A stretch of DNA of 64,000 bases. It comes from Spirochaetota bacterium. GTDB taxonomy: Bacteria; Spirochaetota; UBA4802; UBA5550. The notes under the pieces are model-generated. The model saw nothing but the letters and a program-made list of their open reading frames with translations, made no database searches and was not told the DNA's origin. The translations under genes were made by a program, and so were the position numbers. Within the stretch, counting starts at the first letter, position 1, and the number at the start of each line of letters is the position of its first letter. Location of the stretch: NCBI GenBank assembly GCA_963664815.2, contig CAXXHB010000001.1, forward strand, positions 29,511 to 93,510. Reading direction: 5' to 3'. Shown in pieces: positions 41,813 to 64,000 of the stretch.

Positions 41813-42094
41813 AAAAATGCTACCTCCATCGTTCTATAATTAATCAAAGTTAATTATCATTAATCAATATCTATAATCATTAATTATTGTCAATCAATTT
41901 ATTATGTCTCATGCGAAAAATGTCGGGAAAGAGGTTAAGTCTTTAAGCGGTGCTGACCTGTTCCGGTTTTTTTATGAGAAAAACATATCATCCGGAGGAT
42001 CCATAGTACTACGGCAGCAGCTCCTTGAATCCCGCACAACGTATCAGCCTTGTAGCGGCCGTCAGACAGCTCAAGATCATTCACAAGGACAATC

Positions 42095-42302
42095 CGTGTG
42101 GAGGAACAGCAACAGATGGCTGCCGGAGAGTATGGGAACAGACTTGACAATTTCGGACTTTTATGATGCAAATGGGAATATAAAAGCACTGGAACAGGCA
42201 GCGGCAATTACATGGAATTACCGTGACAACCTGAGTTCAGCAGTTCTTTTAAAACGAGACGCCCCCACAGGTGGGGGAGAGTTAATAAATGACGCGGAGT
42301 AC
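42095..42302 (+). pseudogene. Rhs core fragment
   Basis: YDANGNIKAL...ITWNYRDNLSSAV...DAEY, truncated at both ends. Confidence 0.7.
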
Positions 42303-42464
42303 AAAGTTATTCCGGACTAACCGACCCCTTACCGGTCAGGTTTTACTTTTTTAAAATTACCGGAGTACAGGAAATTGCATTAATTCAATAAAGTTCAACA
42401 GCACACAAAAAGAGGAGCGGACACGACGCCCCCTCCGGCTCCCCCACGGGTGGGGGAGAGTTAA

Positions 42465-43934
42465 TTAATGACGCGGAGTACTATGTATATGACGCATCGG
42501 GGCAACGTGTACGGAAAGTCAGGGAGACTTTACGAAGTGCAGATGTAATAGAAGTAGATGAAAAGATTTATCTTGGCGGAGTGGAGATAAAGCGAATCCG
42601 TGCAATCCAGAATAACAACAATACTACAGAACTGGAAAGAAGTACCCTTCATTTTATGGATGACAAGCGCAGGATTGCAGTTGTACATAACTGGTCTGCT
42701 GATAACAATAACAAGGAAATTGATTCATCCTTTGATTTAAATAACAATAAGATAAGATACCAGTACGGCAACCTTCTCGACAGTGCATCACTGGAACTGG
42801 ATGGGGCAGGGCGTATAATATCTTATGAGGAATATGACGCCACAGGATGTGGCTAATGCAAAGCGCGACAGGATGTCAAAAAAGCGCTTTGCCTTTCCTT
42901 ACGGTGATACAAGCTTTATGGCCGGGACTAACCAGAAGGAAGTTAAGCTCAAAGAGTACAGATACACCGGGAAAGAAAAAGATGACGCCACGGGATTGTA
43001 TTACTACGGAGCAAGGTATTATGCTTCATGGCTGGGGAGATGGTTGAGTGCAGACCCGCTGTTCAGGGAGAACCCGGGAGTATATGAGAGGCCGAAGGGG
43101 AAGGATGAGGATGAACAGAAGAAGCTTGATGAGGAGTTTAAGGGGAAGCTTTATACATAAGGGATGAACCTTTACGGTTACGTTAAGGGGAATCCGGTGA
43201 GGTTTAGTGATCCGAGTGGAAGAGATGGTAGTGATATAATTCTCGATTTACAGCGGGGCCTTGATGAAGGTGCAAATAATCAATGGAAACAGGCAAAACA
43301 GGATTTTTCAAGCGGATCAGCATTGGGTCTATTGAAAGGATCGTGGAATACATATGCAGCTAGCGTAAACAAAGTAACAGCATTCATATTACCTTTAAGC
43401 AAGGATGAAATGTTTGTAGCGGCAATGACTATGGGGTTAGCACCCGCAGCAGGTAAATCTATGAATTATTTGTTGAATCGAGGTGAAAGTCTGCTTTCAA
43501 AAATGGCTATAAAAGGTGGGACAAACAAAGCGTTAGGTTTTGTTGATAAAGTCATTACAAAGGATCAATTTTATGAAAGTGCAATGAAAATTGCTAAAAC
43601 AGGTAATTTTCAAGCAGGAAAAGACAGTGCCATTTTTTATTCTGGACAAGGAATTATGGGAAAAGCGACAAATTTTGCAGAAAGAACTGGAAAGAAAACA
43701 ATTGAATTGACTGATGCAGGTTCAGTTCTAGACAAAATGCACTTGTATAAAAATTTGGGACCTGATCTGGCCGATAAAATATGGAAAGAAGCTTCAACGA
43801 ATTATGCTAAAAGTGCAGAAGGTATCGTCCATAAGTTTATACAAGGCCACCAGCAAGGCAGGGTGTATCAGTCCATCGAAAAACCCATTCTAAAGAATAA
43901 TTCAAAAGTTACCGGATCTAAGTCTCATTACTAA
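42465..43934 (+). pseudogene. orphan Rhs cassette 1 with an ADP-ribosyl-cyclase-like C-terminal toxin (58-nt insert; TAA at 43158)
   Basis: YVYDASGQRVRK, YRYTGKEKD..GLYYYGARYY..W.GRWLSADP, NLY.YV.GNPV..DPSG; tip FYSG...TIELTDAG...WKEAS..YAKSAEG. Confidence 0.75.
42836..42893 (+). other. 58-nt structured insert with two GGA-loop hairpins (identical copy at 44843-44900)
   Basis: Splits EEY|FPYG; gccac-aggat-gtggc and gcaaagcgc-gac-aggat-gtc-aaaaaa-gcgctttgc. Confidence 0.9.
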
Positions 43935-43961
43935 CATTACAAGAATAAGGATGGTCTGCAA

Positions 43962-44255
43962 ATGAAGGGATTTAAAAAAGTATTTGAGGGTGAAGTTATT
44001 CATGAATCAGGGTATGGAATATCTTTTGAAAGAAATAAATTAAAATATTGGAATAATGAGAAAATATTATATATTCCATATGAATCAAATTTAGACCCAT
44101 ATACAGTTATTATCTTCACTTATGGGATTACTAACTGGTACTTACGACCGGATGATTTTATAAAGGAAAGTGAAAAAAATATCATAATTAAAAACATTGA
44201 TAAAGCAATATCTTTTTTAAATATTAAACATGAATTTAATGATGTAAAATATTGA
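43962..44255 (+). CDS. immunity protein (Imm74-like)
   Basis: Directly after the toxin; ITNW..P..I.ESEK..II.NI.KAI.FL. Confidence 0.6.
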   Translation: MKGFKKVFEGEVIHESGYGISFERNKLKYWNNEKILYIPYESNLDPYTVIIFTYGITNWYLRPDDFIKESEKNIIIKNIDKAISFLNIKHEFNDVKY

Positions 44256-44258
44256 AAT

Positions 44259-44490
44259 TGCCCATGCCACACCCTAGTCCATTCTGGACTTGGCGGTTCT
44301 TTATAAGGAACCGCAAGTTCCGGGTACATCCGTTTTTTCTGCTGACACTTAAAAGTCAGTAAATAAGCCGGAGTACAGGAAATTGTATTAATTCAATAAA
44401 GTTCAACAGCACACAAAAAGAGGAGCGGACACGACGCCCCTCCGGCTCCCCCACGGGTGGGGAAGGGTTGATTAATAACGCGGAGTACTA
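44259..44490 (+). repeat. Rhs inter-cassette linker (also 46888-47111; 3' half at 42360-42480)
   Basis: Near-identical multi-hairpin sequence after each immunity gene. Confidence 0.9.
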
Positions 44491-45839
44491 TGTATATGAC
44501 GCATCGGGACAGAGAGTACGCAAAGTCAGGGAGACTTTACGAAGTGCAGATGTAATAGAATTAGATGAAAAGATTTATCTTGGCGGAGTGGAGATAAAGC
44601 GAATCCGTGCAATCCAGAATAACAACAGTACTACAGAACTGGAAAGAAGTACCCTTCATTTTATGGATGACAAGCGCAGGATTGCAGTTGTACATAACTG
44701 GAATCTGAATTCAAACAACAGGGAAATTGATTCATCCTCTGATATAAATAACAATAAGATAAGATACCAGTATGGCAACCATCTCGACAGTGCATCACTG
44801 GAACTGGATGGGGCAGGGAGTATAATATCTTATGAGGAATATGACGCCACAGGATGTGGCTAATGCAAAGCGCGACAGGATGTCAAAAAAGCGCTTTGCC
44901 TTTCCGTATGGAGACACAAGCTTTATGGCCGGGACTAACCAGAAGGAAGTTAAGCTCAAAGAGTACCGATACACCGGGAAAGAAAAAGATGACGCCACAG
45001 GATTGTATTACTACGGAGCAAGGTACTATGCAAGCTGGCTGGGGAGATGGTTGAGTGCAGACCCGCTGTTCAGGGAAAACCCGGGAGTATATGAAAGGCC
45101 GAAACCCAAAGATAAAGATGAAGCACAGAAAGCAGAAGCAGAGTATATGCAGAAGCTTTATTCTGAAGGGTTGAATCTTTATTGCTACGTTAAGGGGAAT
45201 CCGGTTAGGTTTAGGGATGAAAATGGCAATTATCTTATTGAGCATGGAAACAATTCTGATTTATACTTTGTACGTTTTCAAAGCAAAGCAGAGAATAATA
45301 TTGAATTGGCATTCAAAGCTCAGCCATTGATACCATTTACAACAGCCATACTTCATGGTTCAAAAACAATAATGGGAGAATACGATTCGGATCTTAAATT
45401 TCAAACAACAATTAGTGAATCTATTCTAGATTTAATAAAAATGAAGAGTATAAAAACAGCTAAAGAAGTACTCGATTTATATTCTGCTGAAAGGACATTA
45501 AGAGCAGAAATAACAAAGAGAGACTCAGATGCGTTAAGAGAATATGCATTTACTAATGCTGGTGGTGGAAATATAAAAGGTCTAGATACTGTAATTGTTC
45601 ATAAAGATCGTAAAGCAGTTGAAGAGATGGTGAATATATTAGATTTAATGATTGAAAATAAAATTGGTGAGTTAACTAAAGAATCATTTAATCCATATCA
45701 TGATATAAAAAGTGAAAATCAAAGAGAGGATTTTGTAAAAACAGAATTAAATAATTACATAACAACTGAGTTAAAAAAAGATTTTAAACAATTTATTATT
45801 CCATATATCGAGAAAAAGTATGGAAAAACTAAAAATTAA
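44468..45839 (+). pseudogene. orphan Rhs cassette 2 with an uncharacterised C-terminal toxin (58-nt insert)
   Basis: Core near-identical to cassette 1; diverges after GNPVRF.D..G. Confidence 0.75.
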
Positions 45840-45851
45840 AGAGGGATTTTT

Positions 45852-46880
45852 ATGAATGAAAAAGTTCGATTTATAATTTATTCGTTATTTTTCATATTTA
45901 TTACATTCCCATGTTATGCGGATATTTTTCAAATTATTGAAAAGAATAATTATCAGGAATTAAACGAATATCTTAATGATAAGAGAGATATTAATATTAA
46001 GAATGATAAAGGAGAGACTCCTTTAATATTTGCAATTATCCATAAGAATGAAGGAGCAGTTAAATTGCTTTTAAAAAATAATGCTGATATTAATTCTTAT
46101 GATAATAATTATATGACTCCACTTTGCCATGCAGTTGATTCAAATAACATTATATTTATTGAATTATTATTAGACCAGGGGGTTTCATTAAAGAGGAATA
46201 AAAAAATATATACATGTTCACCATTGATAAATACAGTATCGTTGAATAATAAAAAGATTCTCAGGTTACTTATAGATAGAGGAGGGGATATTAATGAAAG
46301 TAATAAAATAGGATGGAGTCTTTTACATTACAGTATAATTGATGGGAATACTGAAATATCAGAATTACTGATTGAGAAAGGGGCTGATATTAATCAGCAG
46401 GATAAAAATGGAGATACACCACTAATTAAGGCTTTAAAAAAATCTAATTTTAAAATTATTAAATTGTTAATAGACCATGGGGCAAATCTTAACATAAAAA
46501 ATAACATAGGGGAAAATGCTTTAATAATCTCTATCCGCTATAATAATATTGATATTATTCAATATTTATTGGCAAAAGGTGCTTCAATTAATAATAAATC
46601 TAATTCTGAAAAGTCAGCTTTACAAGCTTCTGTTGATACGGGTCGAATTGACATAACGAAATATCTTTTTGAAAAAGGGGCAAATATTAATTTAGAAATT
46701 GGTAATGGTGGATATCTTTTAATTAAAGCAATTAAACAAGAAAGATTAGATACGGTTGAGTTACTTTTACAATACAAAGCATCGATATATTGGAAAGATG
46801 AGTTAAAAATGAATGCCCTTGATTGGGCAAAGCAAATTAAGAATGAAAAGATAATTAAAGTAATAGAGAATGCTAAATAA
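45852..46880 (+). CDS. signal-peptide ankyrin-repeat protein, probable immunity protein
   Basis: ~8 ankyrin repeats; AT-rich; 12 bp after the toxin stop. Confidence 0.8.
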   Translation: MNEKVRFIIYSLFFIFITFPCYADIFQIIEKNNYQELNEYLNDKRDINIKNDKGETPLIFAIIHKNEGAVKLLLKNNADINSYDNNYMTPLCHAVDSNNIIFIELLLDQGVSLKRNKKIYTCSPLINTVSLNNKKILRLLIDRGGDINESNKIGWSLLHYSIIDGNTEISELLIEKGADINQQDKNGDTPLIKALKKSNFKIIKLLIDHGANLNIKNNIGENALIISIRYNNIDIIQYLLAKGASINNKSNSEKSALQASVDTGRIDITKYLFEKGANINLEIGNGGYLLIKAIKQERLDTVELLLQYKASIYWKDELKMNALDWAKQIKNEKIIKVIENAK

Positions 46881-47139
46881 CACTGCCTTGCCATGGAACA
46901 AACAAGTCCATTCTGGACAGTACGGTTCCTTATAAGGAACCGCAAGTTCCGGGTACATCCGGTTTATCTGCTGACACTTAAAAGTCAGTAAATAAACCGG
47001 AGTACAGGAAATTGCATTAATTCAATAAAGTTCAAAAGCACACAAAAAAAGGAGCGGACACGACGCCCCCTCCGGCTCCCCCACGAGTGGGGGAGAGTTA
47101 ATTAATGACGTTTCCGCGACTGGTGCTATCCGGACATGG

Positions 47140-53340: not shown

Positions 53341-53586
53341 TTTTAAAAAAACCTCATAATTTTCTATCCAGAAAAATATAATATTTCACCTTTATGAAAG
53401 TATGTTAATCAGAAATTTTAAAGATGTACCGGGATAAAAACCGGATACTATATATACAACAGACGAAAATCGCAGAATAAATTATTCACTTACGCCCAGC
53501 CTATGCCGGCTGAAAGATCACCGGCTGATCCATATACCCACGGCAACAGCCCCTAAATCACCAGTGGATCTATAATCTTCCGGCAA
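53341..53586 (+). repeat. ~245-bp direct repeat bracketing the HEPN-MNT pair (copy at 54721-54967)
   Basis: Near-identical ttttaaaaaaacctc...ctataatcttccggcaa. Confidence 0.9.
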
Positions 53587-53936
53587 CCGCTCCCGCACCC
53601 CCGGAGGGGGCAAAGATAGTCTTGCCCCCTCCGGGGGTGCGGGAGCGGTTAAGTTCCGGTCGCTGAAAGTATACTATACCGGCAATGGTGCGGGGGAATT
53701 AGGGGGCTTCTGGTACAAGTGAATTTATCGGAAGATGTGATTTCCATACAAGAAGTGTGTGAGCAGAGGAGCCTTGCTAAGATCATGAACCTGACGGTGC
53801 TGCATGGACCGAATCACGCCCCCGGCCTGTCGGCCACCCCCTTTGTTAAGGGGGTTTGACATTCCGATAAGATACCATTATCTTTCTTTATAATCTCAGC
53901 AGGAAAAATCTTCACTTTGTTTAAACCCAGAATTCA

Positions 53937-54260
53937 TCATGCTATCTTCAGTTCAATCCCTTCATGCTTTGCCGTTTCAATAACCGGTGATCCGGAATCG
54001 CTGTTGAAATACTTTTCGCCTACAGGTACTGGCTCTATTCTGTAATCACCTATCTTCGTGAGTTTCCACAGCAGCCCGTAATAACGCTCTCTCCCTTTAT
54101 CGAATTCAGGAGAAACGAGAAGAAGATCGATATCGCTTTCATCGGTATAGTCGCCGCGGGCGTAACTGCCGAAGATAATTGCCCTGGTAATAACAAGGCC
54201 ATGTTCGGACAATGAAGCCACGTATTTACATGCAAGCTTTACAGCATCTTCTCTGCCCAT
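53937..54260 (-). CDS. MNT nucleotidyltransferase antitoxin
   Basis: FGSYARG...SDIDL. Confidence 0.9.
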   Translation of the reverse strand: MGREDAVKLACKYVASLSEHGLVITRAIIFGSYARGDYTDESDIDLLLVSPEFDKGRERYYGLLWKLTKIGDYRIEPVPVGEKYFNSDSGSPVIETAKHEGIELKIA

Positions 54261-54616
54261 TTCATCACTTCCGTTGTTTTATCCATAAACCGGGACACCT
54301 GTTCACCATCGTGTTCTGTCCCTGATGGTTCAGGGTATCTCCCCTGTATATTGTATTCCATCAGTATTCCAAAATGATATTCAATCTCATCATTGAGCTT
54401 TATACCGGATTTTTCTGCCAGCATGAAAAGATTATGGCTTTTTGGTGCAAGTTCTGATGTTTTCTTCACATACAGGGCTTTCAGCATTTTTTCCATTGCA
54501 AGATGACAGAAAAACATCCCCTCTCGGTATTTTTTCTTTTCGATCAATATCCCTGCTGTCTCAATATCAGACAGTGATCCGCTATGCCAGTAATTTATCT
54601 GTTTCTGAATATCCAT
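54239..54616 (-). CDS. HEPN-domain protein
   Basis: FFCHLAMEKMLKA...KSHNL...RYP. Confidence 0.88.
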   Translation of the reverse strand: MDIQKQINYWHSGSLSDIETAGILIEKKKYREGMFFCHLAMEKMLKALYVKKTSELAPKSHNLFMLAEKSGIKLNDEIEYHFGILMEYNIQGRYPEPSGTEHDGEQVSRFMDKTTEVMKWAEKML

Positions 54617-55219
54617 TTAATAAATCATTCCATTAAACGGTTTTTTAATCATAATTTAATGCAATGTCAACAGATTTTTCGCTCCCGCTGTCACTGGTTT
54701 GACATTCCGATAAGATAAGATTTTAAAAAAACCTCGTAATTTTCTATCCAGAAAAATATAATATTTCACCTTTATGAAAGTATGTTAATCAGAAATTTTT
54801 AAGATGTAGCTGGATAAAAACCGGATATTATATATAATACAGACGAAAATCGCAGAATAAATTATTCACTTACACCCAGCCTATGCCGGCTGAAAGATCA
54901 CCGGAGGATCCATATACCCACGGCAACAGCCCCCTGAATCACCAGTGGATCTATAATCTTCCGGCAAGAGCCCCCTAAGTCCCCCGGCGGGGGACTTAGG
55001 GGGCTTTCTGGTACAAGTGAATCACCGGCTGATCCATCCTCTTCCGGCGACAGCCCCCGCACCCCCGGAGGGGGCAAGACTATCTTTGCCCCCTCCGGGC
55101 GTTGTGCTGAACTTGCCGAAGCAGGTGCGGGGGCTGTTAAGTTCCGGTCGCTGAAAGCATACTATACCGGCCGAGGTGCAAAGGCCGAATCGCGGCATCA
55201 TCCACTGTTCCGGGGCCAG

Positions 55220-57181
55220 TTATCTCTTTTCATTTTCTTTTTCGTTTTTAACTTTGGTGTATTTATAAACCTTCATGCCCGGTTTTATATCGTTTCTGTT
55301 TCCTGAAGTTATTTCGCATTTGGTCAATGTCTGCATGGGGAATGTTGCGCGGAGTATTATTATTTTATTCCCTGAATACAGACAGAGTTTATCACCCATA
55401 TATACGCGATCAGCAATATTCCTCCCCCCTACCAGGATCTCTTTTTTATCTACGGATTTAACCTCGCCGACATACAGACCCGATTGCTCAAGAGATTCTT
55501 TCTGTTTGGCGGCGGAAAGAGGATTTTTTAAAATACCATACCTCCCGTTTTTTTTAACAACAGCGATACCTTCAGAAAAAGTACCTGCTTCTTCCAGTTC
55601 AGGTTCGATAACAAACTTACCATCCCTGTTTATATAGCCCCAGGTTGAATTATTATAATCTGTTTTAACCTTTGCCAGCCCTTCAGAAAAACTCTCTGCA
55701 ACATCAAACTGCGGCTCTATTGCAAATTTACCATTTTTATCGATAAAGCCCCACTTCTCATCGTTTTTCACGGCGGCAAGACCTTCGGTAAAATTCAGTA
55801 CACTTTTAAATTGAGGTTTCACAACAACATTTCCCTCAGCATTTATAAAACCATATTTGCTGAAAACAGACATGGTCGAAAAGGAGAAAAATCCATTGAA
55901 ACAATTGTTCGGTACACAGATTTCGGTTGAAGAATATATCCATGCCATCCCTTCTGAAAAGCTGCCAATGCGCTTATATTCAGGTTTTATTAAAAATTTC
56001 CCATATTTGTCAATATAGCCATACCTTGAATCAATCTGGTAAAAATTGCGTTTTTCAACTCTTGCAGCACCTCCGGTAAAGTCATCATAGTTATAAAACT
56101 GGGGTTTAAAAATTAACCGGCCATCCTTATTCAGCAGACCATGTTCATAATAATAAAAGGGTGTATTGCTGAGATATATTTTAGTTACCCATGCGACGCC
56201 ATCGGAGAAATGCCTTGGACGTTCATATTCAGGTTCTACTATAATTTTACCATCTCTGTTGATGAAACCCCAGTATCTGTCAGTTTCAACCGCGGCTATT
56301 CCCTCTGAAAACGATTCTGCACCCTGAAATTGAGGTTTAATTACAGTCACGCCATCTTTATTGATGAAACCCCATTTATATGTTTTGTCAGTTAAAATCG
56401 CGGCAAGTCCCTCTGAAAATGGTATTGCGGCCTGAAATTGAGGTTTAATTACAATCTCGCCATCTTTATTGATGAAACCCCATCTATATGTTTTGTCAGA
56501 TTCAATCGCGGCAAGCCCTTCTGAAAATGAGTATGCTTTATAAAACTGAGGCGCTGCTGTAATTGTACCATCTTTATTGATGAAGCCGTATTTTTTATCT
56601 TTTATTATTAATGCCATCCCTTCGGAAAAGTTATCTGCTTCATCAAACTGCGGTTCTGCTATAATTTTGCCGTCTTTACTGATAAAACCCCATTTGGCAT
56701 CTTTTTGAACTATAGCAATATCTTCAAAAAAATTATTTATCTTAGAAAACTGTGGTTTTGCTATAATTTTACCATCTCTGTCAGCTAAACCCCATCGGTT
56801 GTCTTTACAGATTTTAGCAACACCCGGAGAAAGTATCTGTATATCATCATATTCAGGTTCAACAATTACTTTACCATCTTTATTTATCAGGCCCCATTTC
56901 TTATTTTTACTGACTCTGGCCATTCCTTCAGAAAAGGATTCTATTGAGTCAAACTGAAGTTCTGTTAAAACCTTTCCCTCTTTATTTATAAGTCCGTATT
57001 TACTGTTTTTATATATCTCCGCAACACCATCGGAAAAGGGGCTTATGTATTCATATTGATTTTTTTCAAACCAGATTGTATTGTCGCTGTTTTTATGTTG
57101 AGAGCTGCCCGCTGAGGGGAGAAGGGAAAGCTGTAGTGTCATTATAACTATTATCGATATTATTCTCATTATTTTTCTCAT
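55220..57181 (-). CDS. exported WG-repeat protein with a C-terminal 'FPM' beta domain
   Basis: Many FSEGLA...KWGFINKDG...IKPQF repeats. Confidence 0.9.
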   Translation of the reverse strand: MRKIMRIISIIVIMTLQLSLLPSAGSSQHKNSDNTIWFEKNQYEYISPFSDGVAEIYKNSKYGLINKEGKVLTELQFDSIESFSEGMARVSKNKKWGLINKDGKVIVEPEYDDIQILSPGVAKICKDNRWGLADRDGKIIAKPQFSKINNFFEDIAIVQKDAKWGFISKDGKIIAEPQFDEADNFSEGMALIIKDKKYGFINKDGTITAAPQFYKAYSFSEGLAAIESDKTYRWGFINKDGEIVIKPQFQAAIPFSEGLAAILTDKTYKWGFINKDGVTVIKPQFQGAESFSEGIAAVETDRYWGFINRDGKIIVEPEYERPRHFSDGVAWVTKIYLSNTPFYYYEHGLLNKDGRLIFKPQFYNYDDFTGGAARVEKRNFYQIDSRYGYIDKYGKFLIKPEYKRIGSFSEGMAWIYSSTEICVPNNCFNGFFSFSTMSVFSKYGFINAEGNVVVKPQFKSVLNFTEGLAAVKNDEKWGFIDKNGKFAIEPQFDVAESFSEGLAKVKTDYNNSTWGYINRDGKFVIEPELEEAGTFSEGIAVVKKNGRYGILKNPLSAAKQKESLEQSGLYVGEVKSVDKKEILVGGRNIADRVYMGDKLCLYSGNKIIILRATFPMQTLTKCEITSGNRNDIKPGMKVYKYTKVKNEKENEKR

Positions 57182-57958
57182 TCGGGTATACCGGTCTTTA
57201 TGTTGTATTGTGGTGATGAATAAGGAGATAGCATATGCCGGTTCAGATGTCCATAAGAATTAAATTACAATAGATTTTTTTTAATGTGTTTAATATATGT
57301 TAAGCAACATAAACGCATCGTACTTCGCAACCCGAGACGGCCACACCAGTCGAATCCATATACCCACGGCGACAGCCCCCTGAATCACCAGTGGATCTAT
57401 AAACTTCTGGTAACAGCCCCCGCACCCCCGGAGGGGGCAAAGATAGTCTTGCCCCCTCCGGGGGTGCGGGGGCTGTTAAGTACCGGTAGCTGAAAGATCA
57501 CCGGTGGATCTATAATCTTCCGGCGACAGCCCCCTAAATCCCCCGGCGGGGGACTTGAAGATACTGTTATTAAACTATTTGTTTTTAATGTATTCATCCC
57601 TGTAGTCGTCATAATCCTTTCTGAGTGTATGAACATCCCCATAAATTTCTACTGCAGGTTTTTTCTCATGACAGAAAAAATCAGGCATGTATCTGCGTAT
57701 TCTTTGACTTAAATATTTATCAGTACAGCAGTCTTTTAAGTCCCCCGCCGGGGGATTTAGGGGGTTTTCTGGTACAGGTGAATCACCGGCGGATCCATCC
57801 TCTTCTGGCAACAGCCCCCGCGCCCCCGGCCTGTCGGCCACCCCCTTGTTAAGGGGGTTTAACTTTGAGTGCATAAGCAAAGCATGTTATATGAAACATT
57901 TATATCTTGATTAATCTGCTGAAGTAATGTATGGTATATAAAAATATTGAGGTTTAAA

Positions 57959-58097
57959 ATGAAAGTAAAGCACGATATGAAGAACAGATAAACAATATAT
58001 ACACTACAAGAAAATCCAGAAAAGAACTGGAGAAACTTAAATGATTTATATACTCGATACAAATATATGTATTTATTTATTGGATGGTAATAAAAAA
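57959..58097 (+). pseudogene. vapBC-like remnant (PIN N-terminus)
   Basis: MIYILDTNICIY at 58041, preceded by a broken small ORF. Confidence 0.55.
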
Positions 58098-58784
58098 ATG
58101 AATGAACACCTGTACCTGTTACCCGTACTTCTTGAGAATTCAGGTTTCCTTTTTGAGGCAGAGGTCGTGAAGGATTTTCTGTATAAGAAAAAGAACCTTG
58201 AAAAGCTAAATGAAGTTCAAAGCCGGATACTCGGAAAAAAAATATACTATGGCGCCAGGTTGCCTGTTAAGGCAGCAACTGGAGATTACTGGTTCGATAT
58301 TTATTCTTTTAGTTTGTTCATGTATATAGAATCGGGAAATTTTTCTTACTGGTTAGCCATGTCTCCCCTGAGAGCAATTAATATTCTGGAGGGGGGAGAT
58401 CCGTGTGCAATAATTCATTTTAATGCTTTTGAAGAGATTAAAGAGAGTATGAGTTCATTGCAGTATAATGTCTGGACGCCCGATATTTTTCAGACTATTA
58501 TACATAACTGTGAGTACAATTTATGGGATTTCAGCAATTATAAAGAATGGGTCGAAGATGGATACGAATACAAAGTAATTATTGATAACAAAATGACCAT
58601 TGAAAAGAAAACTTCAGTCGGTTCTGAATGGTCTGCCATTTTAGAGTATGAAGATGTAGTGGAAGAATTTTGTGCCCGTTTATCTTTTGAAGATAAAAAT
58701 TATGAACTGGAAATCTCAAATGAAAAATTTCACCAAAGACTGAGTGCAGTTACTGATTATCTCCTTGCAGTTTCTGAAAAGTAG
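58098..58784 (+). CDS. hypothetical protein
   Basis: Open 228-aa frame, in frame with the PIN remnant. Confidence 0.5.
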   Translation: MNEHLYLLPVLLENSGFLFEAEVVKDFLYKKKNLEKLNEVQSRILGKKIYYGARLPVKAATGDYWFDIYSFSLFMYIESGNFSYWLAMSPLRAINILEGGDPCAIIHFNAFEEIKESMSSLQYNVWTPDIFQTIIHNCEYNLWDFSNYKEWVEDGYEYKVIIDNKMTIEKKTSVGSEWSAILEYEDVVEEFCARLSFEDKNYELEISNEKFHQRLSAVTDYLLAVSEK

Positions 58785-59427
58785 TTCTGCATATATTAAA
58801 CTATTTGTGTTTTAATATATTCATCCCTGTAGTCGTCATAATCCTTTCTGAGTTTATGAACATCTGAATCAATTTCTAATACAGGCTTTTTCTCATGACA
58901 GAAAAAATCAGGCATGTATCTGTGTATTATTGACTTAAATATTTATCAGTACAGCAGTCTTTTAAGTCCCCCGCCGGGGGATTTAGGGGGTTTTCTGGTA
59001 CAAGTGAATCACCAGCGGATCCATCCTCTTCCGGCAACAGCCCCCGCACCCCCGGAGGGGGCAAAGATAGTCTTGCCCCCTCCGGGGGTGCGGGGGCTAT
59101 TAAGTACCGGTAGCCGAGAGTGTATCTAACCGCCAGAGTGCAATGCGGGGCTGTTAAGTTCCGGTCGCTGAAAGTATTCTATACCGTCAATGGTGCGGGG
59201 ATTTAGGGGGCTTTCTGGTACAAGTGAATTTATCGGATGATGTATCATCCAGACAAGAAGTGTGTGAGCAGAGGAGCCTTGCTAAGATCATGAACCTGTC
59301 AGCACTGCATTGCATATAATCTTTAATTCTGTACTTTAACTTTTTTACTTGATCCGGCGGGGATATACGGCATCTTTGTCCTGAGGATAAACATGAAACA
59401 AAAACCGATCAAACAGCAGGCCAGTCA

Positions 59428-61176
59428 GTGTTAAGAAAACGGGTGAGGCAGTATCTTGATACTGATATATCAAAATATATATCGCATGTATTTATTTCAA
59501 TTATAATAGGTCTCCTTGCCGGGGGTGGGGCTATTGTTTTCCATAAGGTTCTGTATATCACCAGAACTTTCTTCAGGCCGAATAATTTCAGGGCGGTATT
59601 TGATATACCGGTTTATTTAATAATATTGATCCCTGTTTCAGGGGGGATTCTCACTTCGCTCCTCTCATGGATGTACCCCTCAATCGCAAAGGAAAAAGGG
59701 GTTATAAGCGTAATAAAGGCAATATTGATAAGAAAGGGCTTTATCCCGGTTAAAGAGACAATATTTCATTTTATCGCACCGATTATCTCCATAGGGACAG
59801 GTGCGCCTCTTGGTCCCGAGGGCCCTTCCGCAAAAATCGGAAGCGGGATAGGCTCGTACCTGTCGCAGTTTTTCAGGCATAATAGCAATGATATGATCAT
59901 GTATACAGCCGCCGGCGGCGGCGCCGCGATCTCTGCGGTATTCAATGCCCCCATAGCCGGGGTGTTTTTCGGGATTGAAGTTATTCTGCTTAACGATCTT
60001 AAAAACAGGGCTCTCAGCGCCCTGATTATTGCGGCGGTAATGGCGGATATCCTTTCGAGGACTGTGCTGGGCACTCACAGGATCTTTGTCATACCGGCAT
60101 ACAATATCGGCGATATTTATTCCTATCCGTTCTATATACTGCTTGGAATTCTCTGCGGGATCATTGCCATTATTTATTTCAGGTTCTCTGAGGTAATTAA
60201 ATTTCTCTTTGATGAGAAGCTGAAACTGACCAATCCATTTTATAGACTTCTGCCGGTCACGTTTCTGTTCGGCATATTTCTTATTTTCCAGTATGATCTT
60301 TTCGGCATCGGGTATATTGCAATAAACAATGTACTGCAGGGGAATTACCCTCCATGGCAGCTGCTTAACCTCCTTGTTCTGAAGGTTATATTCCTTGCTC
60401 TGTTTCTCCAGGCCGGTTCATTCGGGGGATCATTTGCTCCTGCCCTGAGTATCGGCACATTCCTCGGGTATCTCATGGCCATAGTCTCCAATCTGATGCT
60501 GGGGACATCTCTTGACCCCATAGCTTTTGCCCTTGTGGGGATGGGTGGAGTTCTTGCGGGGATAAATTCAATCCCCCTTACGTCAATTCTTCTGGTATTT
60601 GAGGTTACCAGTGATTATAACTTTATTCTCCCTTTAATGCTTGTTTCGATACTTTCACATCTTGTGATTTTGTATTACAGAAAGGGGAGTGAATATACTC
60701 TCGCGCTTCTTGACGAAAATATTGATGTAACTAAAAAGGGTGATCTTGATATATTTTCAAAAATGACTGTTGATATGATTCTACAGAAAGATATGGATGT
60801 TGTGGATTACACCGCCCCCTTTAAAGATATTATCAAAATAATTATGAACGCGAAATACGGTGATGTTTTTGTAACCAACCGGGAGAATCAGCTCATCGGT
60901 GTTATAACTCTCAAAGATGTACGGCAGGCCCTGCTGGACAATGACCTTTCATACCTGCTTACGGCGGGCGACCTGGCAATCGATATCCCTCCGGTGAAGA
61001 TAACCGATTCTGTTGCGGCAGCCATTGAGAAGATAAGAGACTACAACATTGAGAATATTCCCGTTGTGGTTTCGGACAGCGGCATGGAGTTTGCAGGGAT
61101 AATAAACCACAGGGATATTATAGAGACCTATTATAAAAAGCTCGATGATATAAGCATGACGGAATTTCTTTTATGA
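59428..61176 (+). CDS. CLC voltage-gated chloride channel family protein with a CBS pair
   Basis: GPEGP, AVFNAPIAG..F..E, GGSFAP, two C-terminal CBS domains. Confidence 0.92.
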   Translation: MLRKRVRQYLDTDISKYISHVFISIIIGLLAGGGAIVFHKVLYITRTFFRPNNFRAVFDIPVYLIILIPVSGGILTSLLSWMYPSIAKEKGVISVIKAILIRKGFIPVKETIFHFIAPIISIGTGAPLGPEGPSAKIGSGIGSYLSQFFRHNSNDMIMYTAAGGGAAISAVFNAPIAGVFFGIEVILLNDLKNRALSALIIAAVMADILSRTVLGTHRIFVIPAYNIGDIYSYPFYILLGILCGIIAIIYFRFSEVIKFLFDEKLKLTNPFYRLLPVTFLFGIFLIFQYDLFGIGYIAINNVLQGNYPPWQLLNLLVLKVIFLALFLQAGSFGGSFAPALSIGTFLGYLMAIVSNLMLGTSLDPIAFALVGMGGVLAGINSIPLTSILLVFEVTSDYNFILPLMLVSILSHLVILYYRKGSEYTLALLDENIDVTKKGDLDIFSKMTVDMILQKDMDVVDYTAPFKDIIKIIMNAKYGDVFVTNRENQLIGVITLKDVRQALLDNDLSYLLTAGDLAIDIPPVKITDSVAAAIEKIRDYNIENIPVVVSDSGMEFAGIINHRDIIETYYKKLDDISMTEFLL

Positions 61177-61336
61177 TGCAGAGGGGATGACGCATCAAAA
61201 CAAGCACTCCGCACTCCCGGAGGATCCATCCTCTTCCGGCACCAGCCCACTGAATCAACGGCGGGGATCCATAAACTTCCGGTACCAGCCCCCGCACCCC
61301 CGGAGGGGGCAAAGATAGTCTTGCCCCCTCCGGGGG

Positions 61337-63043
61337 TAGCATGTTGAATAATAAAAATTCAAAACAGGAAGTATGAATTTTCTATAAATTTTTATTATAC
61401 TTTCTAATTATTCAAATATTTTACTTCGACTTCATATACATCGCATAAACCATCCACGACATCTTCTCACGCTACTGCAGATTGAATTCCAACCCATCCT
61501 ATATCCGCTACTGCCTTCTGAAGTTTTTTCAGGTTATATGTAATGCCGGCCAGAATCGATATAGTATTACATTTCTTTCGTCCCCGCCAATTCAAACGGC
61601 TCAGACCATTGTTGAATTTCAAGTCAAAGAAATTGTGTTCTTTTCCAATACGCCTGTTATATTTATACTTCCATTCTTCGCTTTGCATTCGATCTCTATA
61701 TTTGAACCAGAGTTCTTTGTTATCAACATAGGTTTTTGATACCGTAAAGACTCTGATCTTATTTCTATCCTTATCTTTCCAGCATGATGAATAATGCTCA
61801 CATCCTACACAAAAATTACGGCTCAATGTGAATTTGTACTTATTGTCAGATTTTTCTAATCTCCCCTTTTTCTTACGTTTACCTTTGCAGAAAAAATATA
61901 CTCCATCTTCTTCTTGTTGTACATGATGTTCTCCCTTTATAAACCAGCTCTCTGTAAAATGTAATGGGGGTGCTATATATAAATCTTTACCTTCCTGAAT
62001 TAATTCACTCATCTGTGTAATGTTGAAATAACCTTTGTCTAATAAATACTCACTTTCACATTTAACTGCATTGCTTTCTTTAGCAACTTCTACTTTTTCT
62101 ACCATATCTGAAAGCAGGCTTATATCGCTTTCTTTAGATGTGGCCTCTATTGAAAGAAGTATGTCGTTGCTGCAAAATGCCGCCTGCACGTTATATCCCT
62201 GAATATAGCTTTCATCCTTTTTAAGAAGCTTACTCTCACTATCGGTTAAGTTCACTTTTGTTTCAGGTGTGATTCTTTCCTCTTTGACCTCATCCTCATA
62301 TGACTTTATTTTCATCATGATCTGGTCATATTTATTTTTCTGCTTTTCTATCAGATCTTTCTCTTTATTTAATTCTTCTTCGCTTATTTCGTCATTATCT
62401 TTTAACTCTGATATGTATTTTGCTCTCGCTAAAAGTTTCGCGGATAGGTTCTCATATGTTTTAGCTTCTTATCGAAACCTTCCTTGTCTCGTGTAAATTC
62501 TTTACTGGCATTACTGCTTATCTTTGTACCGTCTATCATTATTCTGCGCCAGTCTATCAGATTTAATTCTTCAAGTATATATAATAAACGGGCAAAGATA
62601 ACTGGAATCTGATCTGGAAAATCGTTAAGAAAACGGCAAAGTGTCGAATAATCTATTGATCTGCCGCCGCTTAAAAATAAAAATCCGGGATGATTGCGAT
62701 TAAGCATTCTCTCGATCTTTCTCATCGACTCTATCCCCTGGCTTAATCCATATAAAATTACTTTCAATTTTGCCGAGGGCTCTATCGCCTTTTGCCCTAC
62801 CGTATCATTCTTATATTTTTTATCAAATGGTTTTGTATCAACATATTCATCTATGAATCTATCAATTACCTTCTCTATTGAATTATCATCAAATATTTCT
62901 TCCGGATATATTGTTAAAAAATATCCTTGCCCCCTCTCTATAGGTTTATACTTTGCCATGTATAATCTCCATACCTTTGATATTTTCATCATGGTTTATA
63001 ATTTCCTGCCTGTCAATTAATACTTTGATTAATCAACAGGCAA
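61337..63043 (-). mobile_element. IS1182-family element, copy 2 (1707 bp)
   Basis: Same TIRs and GGGG duplication as copy 1; different flanks. Confidence 0.9.
61467..62959 (-). pseudogene. IS1182 transposase with a 1-bp deletion near 62455
   Basis: ctcatatgtt versus ctcataatgtt in copy 1. Confidence 0.85.
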
Positions 63044-63057
63044 GGGGTGCGGGGGCT

Positions 63058-63561
63058 GTTAAGTACCGGTAGCTGAGAGTGTATCTAACCGCCGGAGTGC
63101 AATGGCGGGGGCCGTTAAGTACCGGTAGCTGAGAGTGTATCTAATTGCCGGAGTGCAATGGCGGGGGCCGTTAAGTACCGGTAGCTGAGAGTGTATCTAA
63201 CCGCCGGAGTGCAATGGTGGGGGCCGTTAAGTACCGGTAGCTGAGAGTGTATCTAATTGCCGGAGTGCAATGGCGGGGGCCGTTAAGTACCGGTAGCTGA
63301 GAGTGTATCTAATTGCCAGAGTGCAATGGCGGGGGCTGTTAAGTACCGGTAGCTGAGAGTGTATCTAACCGCCGGAGTGCAATGGTGGGGGCTGTTAAGT
63401 ACCGGTAGCTGAGAGTGTATCTAACCGCCGGAGTGCAATGGTGGGGGCCGTTAAGTACCGGTAGCTGAGAGTGTATCTAATTGCCAGAGTGCAATGGCGG
63501 GGGCCGTTAAGTACCGGTAGCTGAGAGTGTATCTAACCGCCGGAGTGCAATGGCGGGGGCT
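63058..63561 (+). repeat. tandem array, 9 x 56 bp
   Basis: gttaagtaccggtagctgagagtgtatctaa(cc/tt)gcc(g/a)gagtgcaatgg(c/t)gggggc(c/t); units start every 56 bp from 63058 to 63506. Confidence 0.97.
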
Positions 63562-64000
63562 GTTTGTAGACAGGATCATTTTGCGCTCCGCAGTTAGGAT
63601 ATTGGTAGTGTCCCTCGGCATAAGGGAGATACGATTTTCCGCATGCAGTGTATTGCGGCACATCCTCATGAAAGTGAATAGTCACTGTAAACCTCCCGGC
63701 GGATCCATAATCTTCCGGCACCAGCCCACTGAATCAACGGAGGGGATCCATAAACTTCCGGCGACGGCCCCTGAATCGGCGGGGGACTTGAAGATACTGT
63801 TATTGAACTATTTGTGTTAAATATTTTCTTATTTCAAAAACAAATTTAATTTAAACAGGTCGTATTGAATACTTTTTGTCAAGGCCGCCTTTTTTATGAC
63901 ATCCTGCCATGTGGCGGCAGGCGAACATCGTGTTCGCTTAATGATACTGGTTTGACATTTCTATAAATATCATTATGGTTATTTAATTCCAGCGAGTGGA

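Follow-up and report, generated by a model that had tools for sequence, protein, structure and literature searches.

A 58-nucleotide two-hairpin insert at one coding junction of orphan Rhs tips belongs to a repeat family of a spirochaete lineage

Why should one and the same short hairpin-forming sequence interrupt, at the same codon, a conserved motif in two neighboring Rhs toxin cassettes? The question is raised by a 64,000-nt stretch of DNA from a Spirochaetota bacterium (GenBank assembly GCA_963664815.2, contig CAXXHB010000001.1; the whole stretch analysed is called the window hereafter), which carries two tandem cassettes, each composed of a short 3' Rhs core remnant, a 58-nt insert, an Rhs-associated core ending in a variable tip and, downstream, one small gene. 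A preliminary description of this DNA had proposed that the insert is a dedicated switch, operating by recoding or bypass, by precise excision, or through a CsrA-gated internal start, that silences or separately expresses the toxin tips. The observation underlying this proposal was confirmed in the present analysis, whereas the switch itself is only partly supported. Coordinates given without a prefix are positions in the window, and those prefixed C1, C2 or C3 refer to contigs of the genome, G000, which is 96% complete; a slash within a motif marks the point of insertion. The features of the insert at its two window sites are as follows.

42836..42893, plus strand: copy 1 of the 58-nt insert, preceded by the Tyr codon of SYEEY and followed by the Phe codon of FPYG; exact match, absent from the paralogous tip C3a and from the homologues described below.
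44843..44900, plus strand: copy 2 of the 58-nt insert, with the same sequence as copy 1; covered by a run X1 unitig that spans 44782-44905.
42839..42853 (copy 2, 44846-44860), plus strand: hairpin 1, GCCACA-GGA-UGUGGC, from the predicted fold and from family covariation, with both sides altered in 4 of 6 pairs.
42854..42856 (copy 2, 44861-44863), plus strand: TAA ending the incoming frame of the Rhs remnant, in the linker between the hairpins.
42858..42892 (copy 2, 44865-44899), plus strand: hairpin 2, a 9-bp outer stem around GACA-GGA-UGUC with an A-rich bulge, from the predicted fold.
44841..44855, plus strand, with a second copy at 44989-45003 (DDATG codons): 15-nt direct repeat ATGACGCCACAGGAT; 14 of 15 nt match in cassette 1.

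The two window copies are exact, and none of 100 shuffled controls matched the 58-mer. A genome-wide BLAST search revealed a third exact copy at C3:3192458-3192515, in the Rhs tip C3b, and the fourth Rhs tip of the genome, C3a, represents an empty site. As had been described, removal of the 58 nt restores EEYFPYG: C3a reads ISYEEYFPHGDTSF, an uninterrupted EEYFP(Y/H)G-type reading with exactly 58 nt fewer, and the proposed check of related rhs genes at the same codon, when run, gave an unbroken SYEEYFPYG and no insert in all 11 close database homologues fetched. The 58-mer is a genuine and precise insertion, for which empty sites exist in C3a and in the homologues.

In the incoming frame, the insert (beginning GACGCC and ending TTTGCC) encodes the six residues DATGCG followed by TAA, the stop at which the upstream open reading frames (ORFs) end. 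The +1 frame, that of the tip, is open through the insert, in phase with FPYG and the tip, and contains an ATG inside the second CAGGATG loop. In-frame ATGs are found at 42825, 42834 (created by the junction tAT/G) and 42873 (the second CAGGATG loop) in copy 1, and at 44832, 44841 and 44880 in copy 2. The earlier claim that the insert supplies a start codon thus holds for 42834 and 42873, which are made or carried by it, with the reservation that the latter (42873-42875; 44880 in copy 2), located within the loop and stem of hairpin 2, is predicted to be buried in a stable stem. The predicted RNA fold of the 58-mer consists of the two hairpins (-24.4 kcal/mol, z = -4.7), both loops of which read ACAGGAUGU, and all nine pairs of the outer stem of hairpin 2 are altered on both sides across the family described below.

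While the insert is identical in both window copies, the four codons following Phe all differ silently (CCT/CCG, TAC/TAT, GGT/GGA and GAT/GAC). Over 200 nt on either side, the two window copies share 92.7% of their flanking positions, and each of them shares 72.5-73.5% with the third copy; uninterrupted identity extends for no more than 12 nt to the left of the insert and 5-11 nt to its right. Under equal divergence, 58 of 58 identical positions would be expected with P ~0.013 for the window pair and ~1e-8 for the comparison with the third copy. Because the insert is fully identical while its flanks are only 72.5-92.7% identical, it must be younger than, or homogenised relative to, its surroundings. 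The codons for E-E-Y-F-P happen to give the insertion site the form of a small inverted repeat, AGGAA-TAT-TTCCT, and the flanks pair around the insert in the folds of three of four contexts; both the inverted repeat and this predicted pairing may bear on targeting.

The origin of such a sequence is indicated by its relatives. In a DNA search of related genomes, only the insert part of the query matched, outside Rhs genes and with compensatory changes in the stems, and scanning species-representative genomes with a pattern yielded 52 loci, several per genome, mostly in those labelled as Spirochaetota or Leptospirales metagenome-assembled genomes (MAGs). In an alignment of 36 family sequences, whose loop letters were preset by the search pattern used to collect them, the pairs of the two hairpins form in 84% of cells, compared with ~30% in slid controls, and of the 20 pairs 14 are altered on both sides; G-U and A-C pairs, counted as a probe of the strand, number 31 and 21, respectively. 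A covariance model (R1) built on the 58-mer and its relatives finds matches in 84 of the 122 genomes of the order and in 61 of the 63 of the family, with up to 46 copies per genome, the number reached in G006, a complete genome of the same genus. The copies in G006 are part of longer (~200-nt) mosaic repeats, in which two subfamilies run in opposite directions, and GTAG...CTAC palindromes are frequent neighbors; 29 of 30 adjoin at least one gene start and 1 of 30 lies between convergent genes, the gene starts being placed by a crude ORF call. A GTAG start is a hallmark of repetitive extragenic palindromic (REP) sequences. Palindromes reading GTAGAGACGCAGCATGCTGCGTCTCTAC were seen beside several family copies in contig C1 of G006, around 883400-896300, and the two-hairpin family was also noticed in two other relatives, G014 and G017. 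The hairpin-2 ATG, and even its GGA, is often altered in family copies of a related genome (GACACGATGTC, GGCAGGACGCC). Four further R1 copies exist in the present genome outside Rhs genes.

63879..63942 (C1:93389-93452), minus strand: diverged family member, intergenic (R1, 34 bits, E = 5e-5).
C2:505964-506028: non-Rhs family copy (R1).
C3:3490592-3490656: non-Rhs family copy (R1).
C1:1824-1887: non-Rhs family copy (R1).

Rfam searches with the inserts, their relatives and the extended repeats returned no such family, only a sub-threshold match to Bacillaceae-1 and chance matches to miRNAs. The two-hairpin ACAGGAUGU family is undescribed in Rfam and abundant in this spirochaete lineage; it has the many copies, the conserved hairpin and the covariation of a dispersed repeat, and the exact 58-mer has only three copies in this genome. 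It follows from the breadth of this family that the insert is not the dedicated device that had been proposed. The preliminary description had itself named what would speak against a switch, namely that the 58-mer is a common intergenic repeat found at random sites and never carried by intact rhs homologues. This was borne out in part, since intergenic copies of the family are common and intact homologues are always free of the insert, but the exact variant occurs at one site only.

That site specificity is apparent from searches at several scales. The exact 58-mer is absent from species-representative genomes and from plasmids and phages, neither it nor a near-exact copy occurs in the 121 other genomes of the order, and the junction pattern of hairpin 2 followed by FPYG codons has no match in the representative genomes. 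One scan of metagenomes, however, gave a contig (L163) with a 57/58-identical copy located between ...DKDGRFYEQMEY and FPYGETWINNK (YEQMEY/FPYGETW). The flanks of this copy are 35-56% identical to those in the window, as compared with 43% for shuffled sequence. The L163 tip belongs to a different, unrelated Rhs family with a homologous junction; it is also an orphan in an array, with cassettes separated by conserved intergenic repeats. The peptide encoded by the insert, used as a query, retrieved three clusters of metagenomic proteins (seven sequences: P0092/P0204/P0205; P0034 with P0202 and P0203; and P0042) that begin with this peptide, as MTPQDVAN(A/G)KRDRMSKKR(F/V)A(F/M)PYG or MSKKRFAFPYG, and continue into different toxin parts; one member is from a Spirochaetota MAG, and a near-identical relative without the insert (P0122) represents an empty allele. 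No R1 element was found at 79 Rhs loci of other genomes, which were fetched with the patterns ISYEEYFP and KLKEYRYT, those fetched with ISYEEYFP being insert-less by construction, nor at the junction in any of the order's 30 best Rhs core loci. The exact variant was therefore found only at the EY/FPYG junction of Rhs tips, in two unrelated Rhs families.

The condition of the host genes is equally relevant to what the insert might do. The Rhs remnants upstream of the inserts are ~95-130 codons long, no N-terminal or YD-repeat shell lies upstream of the tips, and RHS repeats (PF05593) have no match in the 96%-complete genome. All four tips match the Rhs-associated core model (TIGR03696) above cut-off, and these are the only four Rhs_assc_core matches of the genome; the match in cassette 2 begins at model position 3 (window 44904). 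The C-terminal parts of the four tips differ, and a Pfam search of the toxin parts of both window cassettes gave no family.

42441..42835 (cassette 2, 44448-44842), plus strand: 5' Rhs core remnant of cassette 1, without shell or credible start (repeats D10/D18 and alignment).
42825..43160, plus strand: tip ORF of cassette 1, insert leader and Rhs_assc_core, ending at an in-frame TAA (43158-43160) where copy 2 has GAA; the remainder of the tip is open at 43164-43934.
44832..45839, plus strand: tip ORF of cassette 2, intact, 335 aa, with leader, Rhs_assc_core and a toxin domain lacking a Pfam match.
43962..44255, plus strand: candidate immunity gene of cassette 1, assigned from position only; no Pfam match.
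45852..46880, plus strand: ankyrin-repeat protein after cassette 2 (Ank_2, E = 9.6e-67), a candidate immunity gene by position.

The four tips are thus orphan Rhs C-terminal tip cassettes, and two of them bear nonsense codons, TAA in place of GAA in cassette 1 and, in C3a, TAA in place of the TAC found in the other tips. In this genome the cassettes are orphans in decay, and the L163 tip is an orphan as well. Several repeats accompany the cassettes. A ~220-nt conserved intergenic repeat stands ahead of each Rhs remnant (42352-42473, 44262-44481 and 46891-47110); its third copy precedes only a cut-off remnant (47078-47123), and the same junction is a loose end in all four sequencing runs. A dispersed repeat (families D5, D6 and D8) has 10-12 copies in 12 kb (window 41992-42031 and 53521-63751), one of them just upstream of a truncated Rhs fragment at 41904-42320, where it may mark the point at which the rhs body was lost. 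A tandem array at 62937-63676 is made up of a 56-nt unit, GGGGGCYGTTAAGTACCGGTAGCTGAGAG... (families D1/D3), present at least 10 times, with single related copies at 55129 and 59092. Two kilobases from the C3 tips, an open frame of 413 codons (C3:3194702-3195940, minus strand) has, by eye, the look of what we take to be a group II intron reverse transcriptase.

On these grounds, the explanation that we favor, and to which we give an even chance, is that the 58-mer is a copy of a structured repeat native to the lineage that has been site-specifically copied into silent orphan Rhs tips. A short two-hairpin repeat, each hairpin displaying ACAGGAUGU, would have given rise to one variant that was copied with single-nucleotide precision into the DNA encoding the (E)EY/FPYG junction, at the N-terminal edge of the Rhs-associated core. 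From filled sites it would then have spread to empty ones by site-specific, homing-like or short-patch copying. Its direct effect is to sever the tip from the upstream Rhs remnant, the tip staying open from ATGs created or carried by the insert, and as a side effect the tip may have become a separate cistron with a start in or beside a CsrA-type hairpin. The insert is, most likely, a passenger that was lost from, or never fixed in, working rhs genes; it may persist in orphan tips because these are not translated within an Rhs protein, so that the insertion would cost nothing. Small hairpin repeats are usually intergenic, and here one variant stands at a single nucleotide position within a conserved coding motif. 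If it is a neutral passenger, it would provide a clean natural marker of short-patch DNA exchange among Rhs tips; if the copying is enzymatic, it would mean a new target specificity for a miniature element and a new way to mark, silence or start orphan toxin cassettes.

Several points weigh against this explanation. Neither terminal inverted repeats nor a target-site duplication is present at the four readable junctions, where the flanks TAT/TTT are unduplicated. No copy of the exact variant lies outside Rhs tips, and hence no source copy is visible. No enzyme is in view either, as Y1 (RAYT, REP-associated tyrosine transposase) genes are absent from this genome, and in its relatives R1 elements lie within 1.5 kb of none of eight Y1 loci. 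Among the three paralogues found here, gene conversion of short patches could mimic mobility. The intact frame from insert through toxin in five of six distinct insert-bearing tips would fit selection equally well, and the position of the insert exactly at a domain boundary fits a selected function as well as a recent arrival.

The last two points also suit the alternative, which we regard as less likely: that the insert is a portable leader with a selected function, making the orphan tip an independently translated toxin-immunity cistron that starts at the junction or at the hairpin-2 ATG and is gated by CsrA through the two GGA loops. In addition to the intact ORFs, in-frame ATGs are present in all copies, the NCBI annotation starts P0202 at MSKKRFAFPYG, and the insert stands at position 1-2 of the Rhs_assc_core model. 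Moreover, a study on Salmonella describes Rhs tips whose expression relies on internal promoters and starts and which function as toxin-antitoxin modules (PMC7043789), thereby offering a precedent for internally expressed tips. The assertion of the preliminary description that the loops are CsrA sites holds in so far as they resemble such sites and csrA is present (PF02599, 90 bits, C3:1555902-1556060). The ACAGGAUGU loops match the core of the consensus obtained by SELEX, RUACARGGAUGU, as given in PMC7652899, but are one base (a purine) shorter, so that the match to the full consensus is partial. Hairpins with CAAGGA also occur in four of five flagellin-type leaders of this genome, three of them reading CAAGGAUG, ~20-50 nt before a GGAGGA- or GGAG-type Shine-Dalgarno sequence, a layout that would be the expected arrangement for CsrA control of flagellin.

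C2:811920, C2:261749, C2:260564 and C3:3801394: flagellin-type leaders with a CAAGGA hairpin.

In a lineage with few presumed CsrA targets, the parent family could form an extensive CsrA-linked regulon or sponge. However, none of the three ATGs has a Shine-Dalgarno sequence at a usable distance, besides the predicted burial of the one at 42873, and a promoter scan of the region gave 7 sites against 7.6 expected, with none on the plus strand inside the Rhs remnants. The frequent alteration of the hairpin-2 ATG and GGA in family copies indicates that a start codon is not the feature around which the family is organised, and one of the three insert-bearing tips here carries a nonsense codon. CsrA-gated stand-alone expression of the tips is therefore best described as plausible, if unproven, judging from sequence resemblance. 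A bolder reading, which we consider unlikely, would combine both ideas: the 58-mer would be a non-autonomous homing element that recognises EY/FPYG DNA (or the hairpin AGGAA-TAT-TTCCT), copies itself across Rhs families and makes CsrA-gated toxin-immunity cistrons. If true, it would constitute a mobile regulatory module specialised on polymorphic-toxin loci.

Site-specific copying could be dispensed with altogether if each Rhs family had received one old insertion that has since been kept identical by concerted evolution, through short-patch conversion or hairpin-driven template switching. Exchange of this kind does take place: neighboring tips C3a and C3b are identical over ~190 nt (C3:3190555-3190745 and the matching stretch after C3:3192700), and the sequence before this tract is only ~80% identical, which marks a recent conversion tract in the alignment. 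The 11-12 nt shared by tips C1b and C3b on either side of the insert, together with the inverted repeat at the site that pairs around the insert in three of four folds, are consistent with this view. However, this would require conversion tracts that time and again end no more than 12 nt from the insert, to its left as well as to its right, and the 57/58 identity in the unrelated Rhs family of L163, whose flanks are at the level of shuffled sequence, would be left unexplained. We therefore judge this alternative improbable.

Even less probable, to a degree that makes it a marginal candidate, is that the insert serves as a site-specific recombination site for shuffling or capturing tip cassettes, like integron attC. 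A hairpin-forming sequence identical in every cassette, and cassettes arrayed with conserved intergenic repeats between them, in L163 as well, would suit such a role; but the mosaic breakpoints between cassettes lie away from the insert, its left and right flanks diverge together, no recombinase stands beside the arrays in the stretches examined, and no attC-like cores were seen by eye.

Removal of the insert from DNA, by precise excision or by deletion between the 15-nt repeats, or from RNA in an intron-like manner, is highly improbable. The preliminary description had pointed to a repeat of the 5' end of the insert 148 nt downstream, which is exact in copy 2 but matches at only 14 of 15 positions in copy 1 and is absent from the third copy and from L163; it is not a conserved feature of insert-bearing tips. 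Nor is precise excision borne out by the assembled contigs of the four runs, which bridge the insert and then branch into C1-type and C3b-type flanks: no contig joint skips 44843-44900, rare forms being beyond the reach of contigs, and the sole insert-less end is the C3a flank. The insert ends are not intron-like, and no relevant Rfam match to a catalytic RNA or intron was obtained for the insert at E up to 5 and up to 1. The exact 15-nt match in copy 2, between the DDATG codons and the 5' end of the insert extended by the AT before it, is in itself too long for chance. The two repeats were also considered as the borders of a 148-nt insertion, which was rejected, as insert-less homologues hold both EEYFPYG and KDDATG.

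Recoding, whether as a hop from GCC (insert positions 4-6) to GCC (56-58) or as a +1 shift at AGGA-UGU-GGC-UAA that would give a continuous Rhs protein, is as improbable and close to refuted for this genome: the matched GCC codons 52 nt apart, the +1 frame open throughout and an SD (Shine-Dalgarno)-like AGGA three bases before the codon preceding the stop, a spacing like that in prfB, are suggestive in the sequence, but nothing upstream is there to be served by it, given the short remnants and the lack of any shell in the genome, the stop lies four codons past the take-off codon rather than adjacent to it, re-pairing from GGC to GCU would be poor, and none of 82 long candidate relatives ends at the insert with YEEYDATGCG, the last being weak evidence.

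A comparison with known systems places the insert between several of them. Among structured RNAs, Bacillaceae-1 RNA (RF01690) likewise has two hairpins and a conserved loop, and the opposite strand of some family members reaches 31.2 bits; membership was rejected, as this score is below the gathering score of 35 bits and was attained only on the opposite strand of relatives, the 58-mer itself giving no match. A self-splicing intron or ribozyme was set aside for want of a relevant Rfam match. The gap of T4 gene 60 and the mitochondrial 'byp' inserts are also short structured inserts that break a reading frame; here, in contrast, no translated upstream gene exists, the stop is not adjacent to the take-off codon, and bypass is without support, so that a gene 60-type bypass was rejected in spite of the matched GCC codons, the stop coming four codons later and the upstream part being an untranslatable remnant. 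A miniature inverted-repeat transposable element with terminal inverted repeats and a target-site duplication was likewise rejected, both being missing at the four junctions. REP sequences and bacterial interspersed mosaic elements resemble the parent family more closely in being short hairpin units with tens of copies, arranged in mosaics of both orientations and mostly intergenic. They differ in that no link to RAYT/Y1 was found here, on which ground a RAYT-linked REP was rejected, in that loops as well as stems are kept across genera here, and in that one variant here lies inside coding DNA at a single conserved site. The Rickettsia palindromic elements share the placement of a small palindromic repeat within coding sequence, but theirs are in-frame and translated within functional proteins, whereas the 58-mer, with a length of 3n+1, brings a stop and is found in orphan tips at one site only. 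The CsrA-binding hairpins dealt with in PMC7652899 resemble those of the insert in having GGA loops flanked by ACA..UGU, with two sites 25 nt apart, one of which abuts an ATG, and the flagellin leaders of this genome have similar hairpins; in contrast, the loop here is one base short of the consensus, many family copies in the related genome have lost one GGA, and binding is putative. Finally, in the Salmonella Rhs tips (PMC7043789), the tip could likewise be made alone from signals in the constant region upstream of the toxin; the promoter and start in that system lie in an uninterrupted rhs frame, whereas in the present cassettes an inserted element breaks the frame and would itself provide the start of a hypothetical stand-alone tip.

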